Assembly: GCF_004365815.1 (NCBI RefSeq)
Contig: NZ_SODD01000010.1
Coordinates: 29,127 to 61,126 of the forward strand
Length of the DNA stretch: 32,000 bases
Origin: Breznakia blatticola
GTDB taxonomy: Bacteria; Bacillota_I; Bacilli_A; Erysipelotrichales; Erysipelotrichaceae
Direction of reading: 5' to 3'
The notes under the pieces are model-generated. The model was not told the DNA's origin. It worked only from the letters and a program-made list of their open reading frames with translations, and did not search any database. Below, in pieces: positions 10,386 to 26,521 of this stretch (position 1 is its first letter; each line of letters starts with the position of its first letter). A program made the position numbers and the translations under genes.

Positions 10386-10409
10386 AATAAAACATGAATA
10401 TAAATAGAT

Positions 10410-10616
10410 GATAGAGGCGCGATTTGTTATTATGGTATGTATAGAAGGCATTCGTTTGACACTTACCAGAGGAATAGTCGCCGAATAGAGCTGTTGGCAA
10501 ACAGTATCTATGGGCTTTAGGAGAATATCTTAAGGACTGTCTACGCAAGTAGTTGTGCTATCTTAATGAACCAGAAATTGGTCAATAAGAGTACAATCTT
10601 GTTGACCTTTTATTTA
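10410..10616 (+). promoter_or_regulatory. Lysine riboswitch (L-box) with terminator expression platform
   Basis: Conserved L-box blocks are present: GATAGAGGCGCG (5' side of P1), AGTCGCCGAA, CTATGG and AGGACTGTC. P1 closes GATAG (10410..10414) with CTATC (10558..10562). The terminator stem GGTCAATAAG (10580..10589) pairs with CTTGTTGACC (10598..10607), followed by TTTTATTT. It lies directly upstream of lysA. Confidence 0.85.
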
Positions 10617-20133: not shown

Positions 20134-20621
20134 AAAAAGCAATTTATCCAGGAAGCTTCGATCCGATAACAAAGGGGCATTACGATATTATTGAACGTTC
20201 TAGTAAAGTGTTTGATGAAGTCGTGATTGTCTTAATGAAAAACCCGGATAAAAAGGCATTGTTCACAATTGAAGAACGAATTGAAATGATTAAGCAAACG
20301 TGTGCAAATCTTCCTAATGTTACAGTTGATGTTGGAGAAGGATTGACTGTACACTATGCAAAAAAACAAAATGCTAAAGTTATGATTCGTGGAATACGTG
20401 CTGTACAAGATTATGAATATGAACTTCGTAATGCTACTGCAAACATGTGGTTAGATGCGGATGTTGAAACATGTTTCTTTATGGCTAAACCTGAATATTC
20501 TTTTTTATCAAGTAGCTCAGTTAAAGAAATTGCTAGCTTTGGTGGAGATGTCAGTAAGTTTGTCGATCCATATGTAATAACGAAGCTAAAAGAAAAGTTT
20601 GATACTAAGAACTCTAAGTAG
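20130..20621 (+). CDS. coaD: Phosphopantetheine adenylyltransferase
   Basis: 163 aa with AIYPGSFDPITKGHYDIIERS and a C-terminal ISSSSVKEI-type motif. An ATGA overlap couples it to rsmD. Confidence 0.92.
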   Translation: MKKAIYPGSFDPITKGHYDIIERSSKVFDEVVIVLMKNPDKKALFTIEERIEMIKQTCANLPNVTVDVGEGLTVHYAKKQNAKVMIRGIRAVQDYEYELRNATANMWLDADVETCFFMAKPEYSFLSSSSVKEIASFGGDVSKFVDPYVITKLKEKFDTKNSK

Positions 20622-20634
20622 TTCTTTTTCTTTA
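20607..20634 (+). terminator. Candidate terminator after coaD
   Basis: The stem AAGAACT (20607..20613) pairs with AGTTCTT (20620..20626) around a 6-nt loop, followed by TTTCTTT. It overlaps the coaD stop. Confidence 0.5.
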
Positions 20635-20713
20635 CCTCACATTTAATTTAATGTAACATAAATGATGTAACAATCTTGTATATACTCTAGGTAAATACAA
20701 GGAGGAACTAAAA

Positions 20714-21073
20714 ATGAAAGATACATTATTAGCAAAAGAATTATTAAATGGAGTATGGGATGTAGATCACGCTGCTGTTAAACGCGCACTTACATATGGT
20801 GCAGATGCCAACTGGATTTTTAATGGATATCCAATTTTGGTTCATGCCGTTTACACAAGAGATTTAGAAATGGTGGAATTATTGATTTCTCATGGTGCAA
20901 GTCAAGTTGGTGAAGCCCTTGGTTTTGCCTTAGAGTTTGGACTAGGAGAAATGGTAGAACCACTGGCATATCAAGGAATTGTACCTAAAGCAATTAAAGT
21001 AGATGAACGCTTTGGTACACATCCAGAACGTTTTAGTTTACCAAGACATACCTTACAAAGTATGCAAGCATAA
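20714..21073 (+). CDS. Small ankyrin-repeat-like protein
   Basis: 119 aa. GADANWIFNGYPILVHAVYTRDLEMVELLISHGAS fits the ankyrin repeat consensus (G-xP-L-hA-...-V-LL-GA). The SD AAGGAGG precedes the ATG. Confidence 0.6.
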   Translation: MKDTLLAKELLNGVWDVDHAAVKRALTYGADANWIFNGYPILVHAVYTRDLEMVELLISHGASQVGEALGFALEFGLGEMVEPLAYQGIVPKAIKVDERFGTHPERFSLPRHTLQSMQA

Positions 21074-21094
21074 ATATAATTAAGGAGAATAGCT

Positions 21095-22039
21095 ATGAAT
21101 CGAAGCGCACTTGTTATCAAAATGTTAAATTACTTAAAAGCAAACGATGTAGTTTCGCGTGATGAAATTGCAAGTTATTTAGAGACGAATAAACGAAATA
21201 TCTCCGAATTTAAAAAAGAATTAGAAGTCGCAGGATATGTCATTGAAAGTATTACAGGTAAAGATGGGGGATACCGACTAGATGAAACAAGTCTAGTTCC
21301 CACCATTGCCTTAACTGATAAAGAAATAGAATCTCTACATGATGCAGGTGCCTTCTTACAAATGTATAATTACAATCAATTGACTTGTTACAACGATGCA
21401 CTAATGAAAATCAAAAATGCATTACATGAACCTAACCAAAGTAAGAATATTCATTATCTGTGGAGTGGACAAACTACTCATACGGAACATAAAATGATTT
21501 CATTATTTCAAGAAGCTCGAGATAAACGTATGCATGTTCGCTTTTTGTATCGCTCTTTACAAGCAACAACATTTGATGAACGATATGTGCAACCATATGA
21601 ACTTATCGTTTCTGAAGACGGAAATTATGTTCTAGCTTATGATCGTACAGAAGGAAAGCGTCCAGGATATAAATCATTCAAACTATCCGATGTACGTATG
21701 AAACGAGTTGAAATTGCCTCGATTCGTTTTGCACGTGATCCAGATTTTAAAATTGATGAACATGTTGGAAAACAAAATCTGATTGCTGAAGCATATTGCG
21801 TGAAAATTAAAGTAACTGGATTACATGCAATCTTACTAGAAGAGCGGAGTATTGGTTTACTTGAAAGCAAGGAAAAAGTTGATGATGGTTTGCTTATTGA
21901 ATTCACGATGGAAAACAAAGCAAAGATCTTAGAATTTCTTCGTTCCCTTGGTCCAGATTGTATCTTACTTGAACCGAGTGAACTAAAAGATGAATTAATT
22001 GACAGTTTACAACAAAGTCTGAGTCAATATATGCTATAA
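21095..22039 (+). CDS. HTH-WYL-WCX transcriptional regulator (YafY/BrxR/CapW-like architecture)
   Basis: 314 aa. It has an N-terminal DeoR/HTH_11-like wHTH (ALVIKMLNYLKANDVVSRDEIASYLETNKRNISEFKKELEVAGYVIES). It has a WYL-type domain (HVRFLYRSLQATTFDERYVQPYELIVSEDGNYVLAYDRTEG...YKSFKLSDVRM). The C-terminus ends in CILLEPSELKDEL, which looks like a WCX domain. Confidence 0.8.
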   Translation: MNRSALVIKMLNYLKANDVVSRDEIASYLETNKRNISEFKKELEVAGYVIESITGKDGGYRLDETSLVPTIALTDKEIESLHDAGAFLQMYNYNQLTCYNDALMKIKNALHEPNQSKNIHYLWSGQTTHTEHKMISLFQEARDKRMHVRFLYRSLQATTFDERYVQPYELIVSEDGNYVLAYDRTEGKRPGYKSFKLSDVRMKRVEIASIRFARDPDFKIDEHVGKQNLIAEAYCVKIKVTGLHAILLEERSIGLLESKEKVDDGLLIEFTMENKAKILEFLRSLGPDCILLEPSELKDELIDSLQQSLSQYML

Positions 22040-22053
22040 TTGAAAAGCGAATT

Positions 22054-23514
22054 ATGAAACATTTATCAGATATTAATAAATTACAGCGCTGTGATCGTCT
22101 ATTGTGGCTTTCAAAAAAGCAACCACAAGCGTTTCAACGATATGTAATGTTCAATGAAAATATATACGAATTAACCTTGCGTTTATTTGGCATGAAGGAA
22201 TATTTTAAAGGAGCTCCTCATGATACAAATGAGCGCTTCTTTAGCAACATAGATGCGTACGATGTATTTGTTAGTGTACGTTTGGAATATAATGATTTAC
22301 GTATTAAAATGCCAATCATGCGTAAAGTGCATGATGGTTTTGTATTGTATTATCCATATGCAAATTGTTATCCAAAAGAACATGAAGCACAAACGTATGC
22401 AGATCAAGAATGGGTTTTAGATCATTTAGGTATTCGCGTAGTCGATCGCTTTATTGTGCGATTAAATCCAGAATATGTCCGACAAGGAGAACTAGATTTA
22501 GAACAATTGCTACTTGTTGAAAAGAAATTGTATAACGACAAAAATAAAGCAAAACATAGTATTGGCAAATTAGTCAATGAAAGAAAACGTGATCTTACAC
22601 CATTCCTCGAAGCTATTGATACAGTAATGGAGGAGGAACCAGAACGTAAAATTCGTACCAATATATGTACACGTAAAGGGAAATGTGAATACTTTGATGT
22701 ATGTTTCCCAAATCAAAAAGATGTGAGTATTTTAAATCTAGTCTCTTCATCAAAGAAATTTGAATTGCATGACATTCAAGGAATTGAAACAATCTCACAA
22801 ATCGACTTTGCTGATGTAGAGGGAACACGACATCAATATGCACAGTACATGGCCGCAAAAACAGGAACTCTGTTTTTTGATGCAGTTGCTGTCTCGCATT
22901 TTTTTAGAGATGTCACATATCCAATCAGTTATTTGGATTTTGAATGGGAAACATTTGCCTTTCCACCTTTTGATGGAATGAAGCCATATGATGTACTTAC
23001 ATTTCAGTATTCATTACATATTGAAGATGCTAAGCATAATGTACGTCACAAAGAGTTTTTAGGACGTAAAGACTGTCGTGAAGATTTCATTAAACAGTTA
23101 ATTGAAGATATTCCAAAAACTGGATCTGTCATGTGTTTTAATGTAGAAGGTGCTGAAAAGTTACGCTTAAAGCAACTAGCTGCGCAATTTCCAAAATATC
23201 ATGATGCACTTGAACAAATTTGGCAGCGTATGGTTGATTTAGCAATTCCTTTCTCAAGTGGTTTAATTTATGACAATAAGATGGCAGGAATGTACTCATT
23301 AAAGAAACTCGTTAAAATATTTACTAATAAATCGTATGATGAATTAGCGATTGGTGATGGAATTACTGCTATGCAATCCTATGCAAAGTTAGATGAAGCT
23401 GATGAAGAAACTATCAAGAATTTATTGAAGTATTGTGCAATGGATACATATTCAATGATTTTGGTATATCACTGGGTACTACGACAACTGGCAAAACGAA
23501 AGAAAAACAAATAG
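22054..23514 (+). CDS. DUF2779-like protein: N-terminal Cas4/RecB-like (Fe-S cysteine pattern) half plus C-terminal RNase H/DEDD-like half
   Basis: 486 aa. The N-terminus LSDINKLQRCDRLLWL resembles the DUF2779 signature LSKS..f..CP..LWL. Cys13 plus CTRKGKCEYFDVC gives a 1+3 cysteine pattern like Cas4/AddB clusters. The C-terminal half has YLDFEWETFAFPP...KPYDVLTFQYSLH (DxE), MCFNVEGAEKLRL and YCAMDTYSM. The family call is from memory of its motifs. Confidence 0.6.
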   Translation: MKHLSDINKLQRCDRLLWLSKKQPQAFQRYVMFNENIYELTLRLFGMKEYFKGAPHDTNERFFSNIDAYDVFVSVRLEYNDLRIKMPIMRKVHDGFVLYYPYANCYPKEHEAQTYADQEWVLDHLGIRVVDRFIVRLNPEYVRQGELDLEQLLLVEKKLYNDKNKAKHSIGKLVNERKRDLTPFLEAIDTVMEEEPERKIRTNICTRKGKCEYFDVCFPNQKDVSILNLVSSSKKFELHDIQGIETISQIDFADVEGTRHQYAQYMAAKTGTLFFDAVAVSHFFRDVTYPISYLDFEWETFAFPPFDGMKPYDVLTFQYSLHIEDAKHNVRHKEFLGRKDCREDFIKQLIEDIPKTGSVMCFNVEGAEKLRLKQLAAQFPKYHDALEQIWQRMVDLAIPFSSGLIYDNKMAGMYSLKKLVKIFTNKSYDELAIGDGITAMQSYAKLDEADEETIKNLLKYCAMDTYSMILVYHWVLRQLAKRKKNK

Positions 23515-23550
23515 TTTTGTGATACACTATTCATATCAAGAGGTGAATGT

Positions 23551-24525
23551 ATGCCAAATTTAATTACACACAACATCTTCTGTGAAGAAGTATTAAAAGA
23601 CATAAACAATAAGAAATATAGAGACATTATCACAAGTCATATGGAAGAGTATCGAATTGGTAGTAATGGACCTGATTTCTTATTTTTTCATGGAGTTTTT
23701 CCGTTGTATAAAACACCAGATGTACATATATCTAAAATTGGTACGAAGTTGCATCGAGGAAAAGTAAATGCCTTTTATAAAAGTGCGATTGAAACGTACT
23801 TGAATTATCCAAATAATAAAATTAAGAAAGCCATGGCTAGTTATATTATTGGACACTATTTACACTGGCAACTAGATTCTGTAATGCATCCATATGTTGT
23901 ATACAATACTGGTTTTAAAAGTGAATATGCAACACTGTATCACCATCGTTTTGAATCAATGATGGATACGATTAATTTAAAGAACTATCGAAATACAACG
24001 ATTCGCTCATTTAAAACGTATGAAATTACAAATCGTGGAAAATATACAGATCGTGCCATAGCTGAAGTTTATATTCCTGCAGTATATGCTTGTTTTTCTA
24101 CAGAGATTACAAGTGATGAAATTATACAAGCATTACGTGATTGGCAAAAAGCACAAAAGTATTTATATGATCCACATAAAATGAAATATCGGTTATTACG
24201 AAGTTATGAACGTATAGCGCGTAAACCTGGACTAAGTGGAAATGTGGTGCTCCCTGATATTGATACACGCTATGATGTCATGAATGTGAAAAAACGAACA
24301 TGGTTACATCCAACAACCGGTCAACCAAGCAATGAAAGTGAAGATGAAGTATTTATTCGCGCAATGAACGATGCAAAGATTGGATTACCTTTACTTTTTG
24401 ATGCACTTGATGGTAAAGATATGAAACCGTTTTTGAAATTCTTAGGTGATAAAACTTACAATAATGGAGTGAAACCTAGTGAAGCAACACGTTTATATAA
24501 AGATCCTATTTACGATCGCAAGTAA
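23551..24525 (+). CDS. Zinc-dependent phospholipase C / P1-nuclease-fold family protein (cytoplasmic)
   Basis: 324 aa. Motifs MPNLITHNIF, GSNGPDFLFFHG and IGHYLHWQLDSVMHPYV are typical of Zn_dep_PLPC-family proteins in Firmicutes. There is no signal peptide. The SD AGAGGTG lies 36 nt after the upstream stop. Confidence 0.65.
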   Translation: MPNLITHNIFCEEVLKDINNKKYRDIITSHMEEYRIGSNGPDFLFFHGVFPLYKTPDVHISKIGTKLHRGKVNAFYKSAIETYLNYPNNKIKKAMASYIIGHYLHWQLDSVMHPYVVYNTGFKSEYATLYHHRFESMMDTINLKNYRNTTIRSFKTYEITNRGKYTDRAIAEVYIPAVYACFSTEITSDEIIQALRDWQKAQKYLYDPHKMKYRLLRSYERIARKPGLSGNVVLPDIDTRYDVMNVKKRTWLHPTTGQPSNESEDEVFIRAMNDAKIGLPLLFDALDGKDMKPFLKFLGDKTYNNGVKPSEATRLYKDPIYDRK

Positions 24526-24633: not shown

Positions 24634-25809
24634 ATGGAAAATTTTAGTTTTTATGCTCCAACCTATTTTGCCTTTGGTAAAGAAAGTGAAAATGAAGTTG
24701 GAAAGCTTGTAAAGCGCTTTGGTGGAACAAAGGTTTTGATTCACTATGGTGGAGGAAGTGTAGTTCGCTCTGGACTACTTGATCGCGTAAAGAAAAGTTT
24801 AGATGAACAAGAAATTTCATATATGGAACTTGGGGGAGTGAAACCAAATCCAAGAAGTGGACTTGTTTATGAAGGAATTGATATTTGTAAGGACAATGCC
24901 ATTGATTTTATTCTAGCTGTTGGTGGTGGTAGTGTTATTGACTCAGCAAAAGCAATTGCCGCTGGTGCAATCTATGATGGTGATTTCTGGGATTACTATA
25001 CAGGAAAACGCGTCAACCAAGCTTTACCAATAGGAACTGTTCTTACAATTGCTGCCGCTGGTAGTGAAGGTTCACCTGATTCTGTAATTACAAATGAAGA
25101 TGGAATGTATAAACGAGGAAGTTCAGGAGAAGGCTTACGTCCTAAATTTTCTGTATTAAATCCAGAACTTACACAAACATTACCGGCTTATCAAAGTGCT
25201 GCGGGAATTACCGATATTATGGCACATTTGATGGAACGCTATATGACAAATACAACAGATGTAGAAGTAACCGATCGAATGATTGAAGGTTTATTAAAAA
25301 CAATGATTCATGAGGGTCCTAAAGTTATTGAAAATCCAAATAACTATCAAGCAAGAGCAAATATTATGTGGGCTGGTATGATGGCACATAATAACTCATG
25401 TGGAGTAGGGCGCAGTCAAGACTGGGCAAGTCATGATATTGAGCATGAATTAAGTGCAACTTATGATGTAACACACGGAGCTGGATTGGCTGTTGTTATG
25501 CCCCAAGTGATGCGTTATAACATGAATCATGATTTGATGCGATTTGTACAACTTGCACATCGTGTATGGAATGTCGAAATTGACTTTACCGATTTAGAAA
25601 CAACGGCAAATAAAGGAATTGATGCATTCCAACAATATTTAGCATCCATTGGAATGCCAACGACATTTGCACAAATCGGAGCTAAAGAAGAAGATATTCC
25701 TGCAATGGCACACAGTGCATGCTATGGAAATAAGCGTACTGGTACAATTGGTGGCTTTGTTTCGTTAAACGAAGAAGATGTTATCAACATTTATAAAATG
25801 TGTTTATAG
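24634..25809 (+). CDS. Iron-containing (group III) alcohol dehydrogenase, butanol dehydrogenase/YqhD-like
   Basis: It has GGGSVIDSAKAIA plus metal-binding His motifs (HDIEHELSATYDVTHGAGLA). I set the start at the ATG at 24634, 6 nt after AGGAG. The tracked TTG at 24631 is too close to the SD. Confidence 0.85.
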   Translation: MENFSFYAPTYFAFGKESENEVGKLVKRFGGTKVLIHYGGGSVVRSGLLDRVKKSLDEQEISYMELGGVKPNPRSGLVYEGIDICKDNAIDFILAVGGGSVIDSAKAIAAGAIYDGDFWDYYTGKRVNQALPIGTVLTIAAAGSEGSPDSVITNEDGMYKRGSSGEGLRPKFSVLNPELTQTLPAYQSAAGITDIMAHLMERYMTNTTDVEVTDRMIEGLLKTMIHEGPKVIENPNNYQARANIMWAGMMAHNNSCGVGRSQDWASHDIEHELSATYDVTHGAGLAVVMPQVMRYNMNHDLMRFVQLAHRVWNVEIDFTDLETTANKGIDAFQQYLASIGMPTTFAQIGAKEEDIPAMAHSACYGNKRTGTIGGFVSLNEEDVINIYKMCL

Positions 25810-25818
25810 AAAATGAAG

Positions 25819-25845
25819 ACTGGAATGATGTTTCCAGTTTTTTCT
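25819..25845 (+). terminator. Rho-independent terminator after the alcohol dehydrogenase gene
   Basis: The stem ACTGGAA (25819..25825) pairs with TTCCAGT (25832..25838) around a 6-nt loop, followed by TTTTTT. Confidence 0.7.
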
Positions 25846-25846
25846 A

Positions 25847-25855
25847 TGCTACAAT
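25847..25855 (+). promoter_or_regulatory. Extended -10 promoter (TGcTACAAT) placed for a leaderless Nudix transcript
   Basis: TG lies at 25847..25848 and TACAAT at 25850..25855. The A of the ATG (25862) is exactly 7 nt after the last base of the -10. No SD lies between them. Confidence 0.45.
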
Positions 25856-25861
25856 AGAAAC

Positions 25862-26521
25862 ATGAACGAAAAACAAATCAGAAAATTAAGAAATACTTTA
25901 TATGAACAAACTAGATATAGTGGAATTGAAGATTACTTTTATGCTTCAGTTTTGCTTCCGCTAATCTATATTGATGGAAGCTTGCATGTTTTGTTTGAAA
26001 AACGAACGGATACAATTCGTCAGCCAGGAGAAATTAGTTTTCCAGGTGGGGGAATTGAAAAAGATGATCCTTCACCACTAGATACAGCAATTCGAGAAAC
26101 GGTAGAGGAACTTGGCTGTAGTATAAAGGATATTGAAGTCATAGCTAAATTAAATACCCTTATACTTGCTAGTGGTATGGTCATTCATGCATATGCTGGT
26201 TTTTTACATACATCAATGGAGTCATTGCAGTATAACAAAGCGGAAGTGGATCATCTATTTACCATTCCATTGGATTACTTTTATAAACACGAACCAAAAG
26301 CGTATTACTGCAATGTTGAAATTCAACCATATACATTTGATGAGCACGGAAATAAAGTGCAGCTACTACCAACAGCAGAACTAGGATTGCCTGAATCTTA
26401 TCAACAACCGTGGGGAAATGCGAAACAAGTAGTTTATTTTTATCAAACAAGTGATGCTTTAATATGGGGGTTAACAGCAAATATCATGTACGATTTCACA
26501 AGAAAAAGTAGAGAAGATTAA
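25862..26521 (+). CDS. Nudix hydrolase, CoA pyrophosphatase-type
   Basis: The Nudix box is GGGIEKDDPSPLDTAIRETVEELG. It is preceded by the NuCoA-like motif LFEKRTDTIRQPGEISFPGG. Confidence 0.85.
   Translation: MNEKQIRKLRNTLYEQTRYSGIEDYFYASVLLPLIYIDGSLHVLFEKRTDTIRQPGEISFPGGGIEKDDPSPLDTAIRETVEELGCSIKDIEVIAKLNTLILASGMVIHAYAGFLHTSMESLQYNKAEVDHLFTIPLDYFYKHEPKAYYCNVEIQPYTFDEHGNKVQLLPTAELGLPESYQQPWGNAKQVVYFYQTSDALIWGLTANIMYDFTRKSRED

Follow-up and report, generated by a model that had tools for sequence, protein, structure and literature searches.

We examined a 32,000-nucleotide (nt) stretch of Breznakia blatticola (Erysipelotrichaceae) DNA, hereafter the window, that carries a four-gene cluster at 20714-24525. 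The cluster encodes an ankyrin-repeat protein, a predicted winged helix-turn-helix (wHTH)-WYL-WCX regulator, a DUF2779 protein and a phospholipase C (PLC)-like protein. Together with the elements just ahead of it, the locus comprises the following features:

20607-20633, + strand: hairpin AAGAACU/AGUUCUU with U-run, found by folding; overlaps the coaD stop codon
20650-20674: palindromic operator of 25 base pairs (bp); weight-matrix scan, 30.3 bits
20681-20686, + strand: -10-like hexamer TATACT, beginning exactly 6 nt past the operator
20714-21073, + strand: ankyrin-repeat protein gene, 119 amino acids (aa), first gene of the operon
21095-22039, + strand: predicted wHTH-WYL-WCX regulator gene, 314 aa (Pfam WYL and WCX)
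22054-23514, + strand: DUF2779 gene, 486 aa (Pfam DUF2779; Cas4-like half and DEDDy half)
23551-24525, + strand: Zn_dep_PLPC (PLC-like) gene, 324 aa (Pfam; invariant zinc-ligand residues)

A cluster of genes in tight array

Homologues are numerous for each of the four proteins, at 35-90% identity, and the four genes are therefore real; the 486-aa and 324-aa products are 100% identical to deposited B. blatticola proteins. An earlier description of this DNA, made from its letters alone (the sequence-only reading), had a WYL regulator heading a compact same-strand cluster that includes a two-domain nuclease-type protein. This picture stands. A check of the open reading frames (ORFs) returned the same tight packing, with intergenic gaps of 21, 14 and 36 nt, and profile searches upheld the predicted domains of all four proteins (WYL, DUF2779, Zn_dep_PLPC and ankyrin). 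The same reading gave each gene its own Shine-Dalgarno sequence, which holds well for three genes, but that of the DUF2779 gene is weak (GAAAAGCG). It also placed a terminator after coaD. The hairpin there has a 7-bp, A/U-rich stem, a folding energy of -5.2 kcal/mol and z = -0.3, no different from shuffled sequence, and a terminator scan missed it. A hairpin and T-run recur just 5' of the operator in many related loci when their sequences are compared, and the coaD-overlapping hairpin with its U-run is likely the end of the rsmD-coaD transcription unit.

The G+C content is flat across the region, and that of the cluster equals that of its flanks. No tRNA gene or repeat array was found in the 32-kb window, and no cas gene among the neighbours in about 80 related loci.

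An old chromosomal block of ankyrin, WYL and DUF2779 genes

To place the cluster among its relatives, we scanned one genome per species with a closer DUF2779 alignment, obtaining 178 relatives, and took the best 80. Neighbouring ORFs were annotated with hidden Markov models built from homologue sets, and 82 non-redundant loci were counted. All of the best 80 relatives belong to Erysipelotrichales. They span Breznakia, Dielma, Massilicoli, Longicatena, Amedibacillus, Merdibacter, Holdemanella, Holdemania, Anaerorhabdus, Faecalitalea, Floccifex, Dubosiella, Absicoccus and other genera. In these roughly 80 species the DUF2779 gene occupies a single fixed chromosomal site, usually followed by hpf, which encodes a ribosome hibernation factor. 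In 54 of the 82 loci, spread over more than 20 genera, the ankyrin and WYL genes lie immediately 5' of DUF2779 and share its strand. The gap has a median of 13 nt between ankyrin and WYL and of 16.5 nt between WYL and DUF2779, and the latter measures 14-20 nt in 46 of the 54.

Mapping gene content onto the DUF2779 tree revealed that the ankyrin-WYL pair was lost at least six times independently while DUF2779 was kept; the Holdemania/Anaerorhabdus clade, Dubosiella and Copranaerobaculum are examples. On the same tree, the ankyrin gene alone is absent from several lineages. DUF2779 relatedness mirrors taxonomy, Dielma fastidiosa contigs from many samples share one common neighbourhood, and neither mobility genes nor a shift in composition was found at the locus. 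Because the site is fixed, relatedness matches taxonomy and G+C resembles that of the flanks, ankyrin-WYL-DUF2779 is an ancient, vertically inherited chromosomal core block and not a mobile island.

These observations bear on the cluster's earlier standing as a candidate for an undescribed system. Its gene adjacency, which might have been confined to one lineage, extends through the whole order, and a WYL gene also lies beside 9 of 110 distant DUF2779 loci (see below). Placement in a variable island finds no match in a fixed vertical block that has flank-like G+C and no relative of its own type in IMG/VR. The sequence-only reading had itself said that its idea would fail for a strictly conserved core-genome block with no damage or phage phenotype; a fixed, vertical block, which is most of that picture, is what we see.

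Individual loci depart from this plan in several ways (loci are numbered L, with positions after the colon). In three related uncultured Erysipelotrichaceae that also lack the ankyrin gene, a gene with HTH_3 and Peptidase_S24 domains lies between WYL and DUF2779, divergent from DUF2779 (L011:6979-7608, L013:3999-4652 and L014:6939-7613, minus strand). It encodes a LexA/CI-type self-cleaving repressor, and no S24 repressor was found near any other DUF2779 gene. With WYL and S24 regulators both beside DUF2779, two unrelated classes of DNA-stress regulator therefore adjoin the enzyme.

In Dielma, WYL and DUF2779 are separated by an AT-rich spacer of about 800 nt (L001:5050-5883, L019:7166-7925) with 29% G+C, no ORF longer than 54 aa and an inverted repeat of 42-44 nt. 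We considered whether the WYL-DUF2779 spacers of about 1 kb share a hidden gene or RNA and rejected the idea, as the spacers proved to be three insertions unrelated to one another. In the type genome of Massilicoli timonensis, an IS110-family transposase gene lies between ankyrin and WYL (L003:3475-4659, minus strand) and cuts the WYL gene off from the operator; a metagenomic contig with an identical DUF2779 protein (L004) is free of it. Two bins labelled Bacteroidaceae and Segatella copri (L050, L059) hold a typical Erysipelotrichaceae ankyrin-WYL-DUF2779-PLC locus. Their DUF2779 proteins group with Faecalitalea, Faecalicoccus and Absicoccus in the tree, and both are probably mis-binned contigs.

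A conserved palindrome marks the promoter of WYL-positive loci

The window operator reads AATGTAACAT-AAATG-ATGTAACAAT at 20650-20674, and the family consensus is ATTGTGACAT-AAATA-ATGTCACAAT, with the pattern ATTGTnACAT-N5-ATGTnACAAT. The palindrome lies 5' of the ankyrin gene or, where that gene is absent, of the WYL gene. In a weight-matrix scan over 1.25 Mb of related loci, with sites of at least 18 bits counted as strong, a strong operator stood at this same position in 44 of 54 WYL-positive loci and a weaker one in 6 more. None was found in the 28 WYL-negative loci, and none before displaced PLC-like genes. The core pattern occurs once in the 32-kb window, against 0.04 occurrences expected.

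The operator keeps a strict distance to the promoter. TATNNT starts exactly 6 nt past it in 32 of the 44 loci and is present there in most of the remainder as well, while the bases in between are not conserved. The operator centre falls on the -35 position, where the match to TTGACA averages 3.0 of 6 across the 44 loci. An extended -10 (TGn) that could make up for the absent -35 is not conserved, as judged by eye on the promoter sequences. From its occurrence and placement, the 25-bp palindrome is a candidate binding site of the WYL regulator.

Second operators occur in two groups. In the Merdibacter group, strong sites of 20-24 bits (L040:14232, L042:15086, L044:14226, L056:14308) lie about 70 nt past the hpf stop and 340-630 nt 5' of a SpoIIGA gene (PF03419). 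By its sequence, the gene after SpoIIGA looks like a sigE-type sigma factor gene, and the regulon may reach sporulation genes. In Holdemanella-like genomes, where a gene for an AI-2E family transporter (PF01594) lies directly 5' of the ankyrin gene, a second operator of 19-26 bits precedes the transporter gene (L050:5392, L059:5391, L083:66).

The regulator resembles activators that sense single-stranded DNA

Pfam identifies WYL (PF13280; 32.2 bits, cut-off 21.8) and WCX (PF25583; 32.8 bits, cut-off 23.9) in the 314-aa protein, and the generic WYL model of PADLOC scores it at 94 bits. Residues 4-64, the putative wHTH, match Rrf2 (27.4 bits), HTH_11, HTH_34 and HTH_PafC, all under their cut-offs; this is the best-conserved stretch of the regulator family, with T31, N32, R34, N35 and E38 invariant. 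Against the PDB, the family profile found PafB (2e-10), PafBC (4e-9) and PafC (2.5e-7) ahead of DriD (3e-5 to 1e-4), BrxR (1e-3 to 4e-3) and CapW (0.06).

DriD holds single-stranded DNA (ssDNA) with Y168, R176/R178, Y192 of a degenerate NYL motif, R204 and R207 (PMC10853764). These align with Y152, R163, Y178 (in NYVL), K193 and K196 of the window regulator, and R201 is likewise among the positions aligned to DriD contacts. Most of these equivalents are invariant or nearly so in the family. By profile and alignment, the regulator is thus nearest to the ssDNA-sensing activators PafBC and DriD, with the predicted pocket residues kept. The RWHVR motif, which is characteristic of CapW/BrxR repressors (PMC11662680), is absent from the window protein, which has NYVLA in its place. 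By analogy, an activator of the DriD/SiwR type is most likely, ahead of a repressor. The characterised wHTH-WYL-WCX regulators all sense ssDNA (PMC10853764, PMC11804915, PMC10693628, PMC11662680), and induction by ssDNA would be predicted from them for either mode.

The 119-aa product of the first gene scores just below the Ank_2 cut-off in Pfam (25.6 against 27.3 bits). Among 40 members of its family, 34 match Ank_2 (best E-value 1.8e-8) and 22 match Ank; the family has a mean column identity of 48%, and its alignment contains the repeat signature GADPNW..NGYPILLHAV. Within the genome scan, this small protein was seen only alongside WYL. It may work as a partner protein of either the regulator or the exonuclease. 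Our literature search found nothing relevant on an ankyrin-WYL pairing or on DUF2779 with WYL.

DUF2779 joins a dead Cas4-like module to an intact exonuclease domain

The 486-aa protein belongs to DUF2779 (PF11074; 133 bits, cut-off 23.3), a family of 4196 representative clusters at 50% identity, and in Pfam also matches RNase_H_2 (26 bits) and, weakly, the Cas4 C-terminus. Its profile returned no match in the PDB. The structure model is confident (mean predicted local distance difference test score, pLDDT, 92.7), and Foldseek aligned it with Cas4 (4r5q, the top match) and the PolB exonuclease domain (5mdn), both at probability 1.0, as well as with a TREX1-like DNase.

Residue conservation separates the two halves. 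In all 82 Erysipelotrichales sequences, the cysteines C13, C205, C211 and C217 are kept, and so are D295, E297, N363, E368, D395, Y460 and D464 of the exonuclease half, which include the DEDDy residues D295, E297, E368, D395, Y460 and D464. In a distant subgroup at 25-28% identity, the PD-(D/E)XK residues E93, D106, E119 and K121 are invariant; in the window clade, both a MAFFT and a profile-profile alignment put N/S, P, F/Y and Y there, and none of its 82 sequences keeps the catalytic D, E or K. The sequence-only reading had combined a Cas4/RecB-like cysteine pattern with a DEDD half. Both halves are there, the first with its four cysteines, but as a nuclease that half is dead. On these residue patterns, DUF2779 here combines in one chain a catalytically dead, iron-sulphur Cas4-like module and an intact DEDDy 3'-5' exonuclease domain, and the Cas4-like domain probably only holds DNA ends or ssDNA.

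A study of the Mycoplasma protein MMSYN1_0389 described the same two halves and stated that the triad is conserved family-wide (PMC13621843). Judged from the alignments, that statement fails for Erysipelotrichales. Against the UU173 model (cut-off 225), the window protein scores only 32 bits.

The PLC-like gene is a syntenic neighbour

The fourth protein, predicted to be a cytoplasmic metallohydrolase, matches Zn_dep_PLPC (PF00882) at 36 bits, above a cut-off of 26.8. Across 53 PLC-like sequences, P2, N3, H7, D42, H68, H102, H105, D109, H113, H131 and E135 are invariant, which gives an invariant MPN..H7 N-terminus and a full His/Asp/Glu set of zinc ligands. The model is all-alpha, with pLDDT 95.9. 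Foldseek searches of the PDB and BFVD with this model returned no significant neighbour (alpha-toxin had a probability of 0.1-0.2 and a TM-score of 0.24-0.27), and the sequence profile found only an unrelated methylase in the PDB, at E = 1. A link to the S1/P1 nuclease fold, which the sequence-only reading had drawn, did not emerge: P1 and S1 nucleases were absent from the 50 best Foldseek matches, from the profile search of the PDB and from the Pfam matches. From its conserved ligands, the protein is probably an active zinc phosphoesterase, and nothing links it to nucleic acids.

Its genomic position is looser than that of the other three genes. The PLC-like gene lies directly 3' of DUF2779 in 27 species; in 18 others, 1-6 kb of unrelated genes (for FtsX and peptidoglycan-binding proteins) stand between the two. 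In 13 species it overlaps a Peptidase_M19 gene. It and the ankyrin-WYL pair were lost independently, with ankyrin-WYL present without PLC in L061 and PLC present without ankyrin-WYL in L045 and Dubosiella. Hence the proposal of a four-gene unit gives way: the gene is displaced in 18 species, where it is usually paired with Peptidase_M19 and has no operator of its own, is lost independently and was never seen beside distant DUF2779 in the 80 metagenomic loci described below. The PLC-like gene neighbours the module by synteny and is no obligate component of it. In the window itself, it is probably co-transcribed.

Distant DUF2779 genes keep mixed company

We also collected DUF2779 genes with an intact nuclease motif from 80 metagenomic and 30 IMG/VR loci (L090-L199). 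A genuine WYL-WCX regulator lies within 3 kb of DUF2779 in 9 of these 110, and is directly adjacent in 5 or 6; these regulators share about 20% identity with that of the window. No PLC-like gene or small ankyrin protein was found in the 80 metagenomic loci (in the IMG/VR loci, the scan covered WYL and S24 genes only). Neighbours of the distant genes are very mixed, and many are of defence type: OLD-TOPRIM/AAA_15, AbiEii, Abi_2, type I restriction R subunit, SIR2, PvuRts1I, SRA, PDDEXK_4 and HD. This intact-motif branch may be a stand-alone defence or mobile-element nuclease. For the window-type DUF2779, IMG/VR holds no relative.

The sequence-only reading knew of no named defence system with the composition of the window cluster, and our searches agree: PADLOC returned its generic WYL, Cas3c-WYL and Cas4 models and a weak ankyrin match, and PHROGs a match for the WYL protein only. 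That reading's best guess, an undescribed system that senses and cleaves nucleic acid, fares worse as a defence module, with a locus that is fixed and vertical, a Cas4-like site that is dead and a PLC-like gene that is unlinked.

A proposed model of an ssDNA-responsive operon

Building on the observed gene order and its conservation, the operator and its geometry, the residues kept and lost, and the folds, we propose that ankyrin-WYL-DUF2779 is a local, WYL-controlled operon responsive to ssDNA or DNA damage, with the PLC-like gene outside the mechanism. We put the probability of this reading at about 0.55. A dimer of the WYL regulator would bind the 25-bp palindrome that takes the place of the missing -35 box, 6 nt before the -10. 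Its WYL domain, by homology with PafBC, DriD, SiwR and CapW, would bind ssDNA that accumulates after DNA damage or other DNA stress, and the ssDNA-bound regulator would turn the promoter on, most likely by activating RNA polymerase at a promoter without a -35, less likely by release of a repressor. Induction would raise the levels of the regulator, its ankyrin partner and the DUF2779 enzyme. In the latter, the dead Cas4-like iron-sulphur domain would probably only grip DNA ends or ssDNA, and the DEDDy domain would degrade DNA in the 3'-5' direction. The PLC-like zinc hydrolase would be read through in Breznakia and Holdemanella and be an independent gene elsewhere.

A bolder version, which we consider less likely than not, makes the operon the core of a LexA-independent, ssDNA-triggered DNA-damage response of Erysipelotrichales whose effector is a new repair exonuclease, the dead Cas4-like grip feeding the DEDDy domain. 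By consuming the ssDNA, the exonuclease might then also end the signal, a feedback loop that acts back on the regulator of the operon.

Several observations weigh against a local ssDNA-responsive operon. Insertions of 0.35-1 kb separate WYL from DUF2779 in 8 loci, and co-transcription is therefore not universal; in L011, L013 and L014 the insert is an opposite-strand gene. DUF2779 is independent of the regulator, since it persists without ankyrin-WYL in at least six lineages. The placement of distant DUF2779 genes among defence-type genes and on IMG/VR contigs may point to a defence ancestry. The link between regulator and palindrome is one of co-occurrence and position, and an operator over the -35 region is equally compatible with repression and activation. 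At the end of the ankyrin gene, before the WYL start, a promoter-like site at 21052-21080 on the + strand (CTTACA, 17-nt spacer, TATAAT) could drive basal, operator-independent expression of WYL and DUF2779; in the promoter scan overall, sites were no more numerous than chance. The weak Shine-Dalgarno sequence of the window DUF2779 gene counts on the same side.

Alternative readings

Simple synteny is the strongest of the alternatives, though we consider it unlikely. Here the WYL protein would control itself and the ankyrin gene, or genes elsewhere, and DUF2779 and the PLC-like gene would be unrelated housekeeping neighbours. The close adjacency data do come from one order, within which a conserved arrangement of genes is to be expected, DUF2779 remains after loss of ankyrin-WYL, and 8 loci have insertions between WYL and DUF2779; second operators before the AI-2E transporter gene (L050, L059, L083) and before spoIIGA-sigE in Merdibacter extend the regulon beyond the operon. 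What speaks for a functional tie is that the 14-20-nt gaps in 46 of 54 loci have no space for a separate promoter or terminator, that distant DUF2779 genes, both in other phyla and on IMG/VR contigs, have WYL regulators of unrelated subfamilies directly next to them, and that a second type of damage-responsive regulator, S24, was inserted at this very spot.

An undescribed anti-phage or anti-plasmid system seems less probable still. In such a system, a BrxR/CapW-type repressor would free the promoter on infection, with DUF2779 and perhaps the PLC-like hydrolase as effectors that break down the invader's nucleic acid. WYL regulators are common at the head of defence systems (PMC9122601, PMC11662680), the operator and promoter overlap in the manner of repressor sites, and the distant DUF2779 genes have defence-type neighbours, with 30 relatives on IMG/VR contigs. 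The locus itself argues otherwise. It occupies the same chromosomal place in about 80 species, vertically inherited and without mobility genes or a composition shift, has a single neighbourhood in Dielma fastidiosa contigs, corresponds to no PADLOC system model, has only its WYL protein matched in PHROGs and has no window-type DUF2779 counterpart in IMG/VR. Moreover, the Cas4-like nuclease site is dead, the PLC-like gene is unlinked to the regulator, and the regulator lacks RWHVR and is closer to the PafBC/DriD activators than to BrxR/CapW.

The least probable reading, to our judgement, is that RNA or another ligand is at stake, with DUF2779 an exonuclease of RNA processing or turnover and the WYL protein sensing RNA or a nucleotide signal. 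Some WYL domains, such as that of the Cas13d accessory protein WYL1, bind RNA, and the ribosome hibernation gene hpf is the regular neighbour on the 3' side, a position that would fit an RNA exonuclease. Many RNases belong to the DEDD exonucleases (PMC3985635), and the quasi-essential DUF2779 member of a minimal Mycoplasma would suit a housekeeping role (PMC13621843). Yet the characterised wHTH-WYL-WCX regulators sense ssDNA, with matching pocket residues kept here, and CapW has been shown to bind ssDNA but not ssRNA. The best structural matches of the exonuclease half are proofreading domains of DNA polymerases and a TREX1-like DNase, and the N-terminal half has a Cas4/RecB-type DNA-end-binding fold.

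Relation to known systems

SiwR of Mycobacterium smegmatis (PMC10693628) is, as the regulator of this locus would be, a single homodimeric wHTH-WYL-WCX protein that controls adjacent genes. It binds ssDNA, acts just 5' of the -10 box, in the -26 region, and turns on metal-dependent enzymes under genotoxic stress; the -26 element of SiwR and PafBC is comparable to the operator position here (PMC10693628). SiwR differs in its targets, which are DinB/YfiT-like proteins, in the lack of an ankyrin partner, in its phylum and in its operator sequence, and the present locus is known from its sequence. DriD of Caulobacter crescentus (PMC10853764, PMC13004042) shares the domain order and conserved ssDNA-pocket residues, acts on its own gene, and has a palindromic target with an AT-rich centre that lies over a missing -35 at a fixed distance from the -10 (PMC13004042). 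However, DriD acts globally on a large set of damage genes, among them didA, bapE, recJ and dnaG; similarity to it is only E = 3e-5 to 1e-4, and the half-sites here are AT-rich (TTGTnACAT), whereas those of DriD are CG-rich.

Mycobacterial PafBC (PMC6789036, PMC11804915), the best profile match (2e-10, 4e-9), is an ssDNA-triggered activator at -35-less promoters. It is a heterodimer or a two-WYL fusion and controls most of the damage regulon, whereas the locus has one 314-aa gene and a palindromic site that implies a homodimer. BrxR and CapW (PMC9122601, PMC9122589, PMC11662680) share the domain architecture, the position of the regulator at the head of the genes it controls and a palindromic promoter operator, and CapW senses ssDNA (PMC11662680). 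They differ in belonging to variable defence islands, in having RWHVR where NYVLA stands here, and in a weaker match (E = 1e-3 to 0.06).

On the enzyme side, DUF2779 proteins of the MMSYN1_0389/UU173 type (PMC13621843) belong to the same Pfam family, have Cas4-like and DEDD(y) halves with tyrosine for histidine, and are encoded on the chromosomes of Mollicutes, the sister lineage of Erysipelotrichales. The Mycoplasma protein reportedly keeps the D/E/K triad and has two cysteines only (PMC13621843), whereas the window protein has lost the triad and kept four cysteines. We know of no described tie to WYL regulators for the Mycoplasma proteins, one of which is quasi-essential in the minimal synthetic Mycoplasma JCVI-syn3.0 (PMC13621843). 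The zinc PLCs of clostridia and Bacillus (alpha-toxin and PC-PLC; PF00882) share with the PLC-like protein the Pfam match, the invariant zinc ligands and extreme N-terminus and the all-alpha build; the latter differs in having no signal peptide, about 160 extra C-terminal residues and weak Foldseek similarity.

The cluster adds to the known theme of WYL regulators and is neither a new kind of system nor a new defence system. It offers an order-wide WYL example in Firmicutes with a defined candidate operator, promoter geometry and target gene; to our knowledge, the characterised WYL regulators all come from Actinobacteria and Proteobacteria. A regulatory tie to the sensing of DNA damage would be a concrete hypothesis for the function of the large, uncharacterised DUF2779 family and, if the operon is indeed the core of a damage response, a first functional handle on it. 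Across the order, the Cas4-type active site is gone and the iron-sulphur cysteines persist, which would have turned a nuclease domain into a probable DNA-binding module; RecC is a comparable case.

Other features of the window

Downstream, 105 nt separate the PLC-like gene from the next gene, which encodes an iron-type alcohol dehydrogenase. Only the window and strain MTC7 (L055), whose DUF2779 is 90% identical to that of the window, have this gene and a NUDIX gene (24634-26521 in the window) between the PLC-like gene and hpf; in the remaining Breznakia species hpf directly follows the PLC-like gene. The pair is a recent local insertion. Elsewhere in the window, and unrelated to the cluster, a lysine riboswitch aptamer lies at 10404-10568 on the + strand (Rfam RF00168, 60.6 bits, E = 1e-13).

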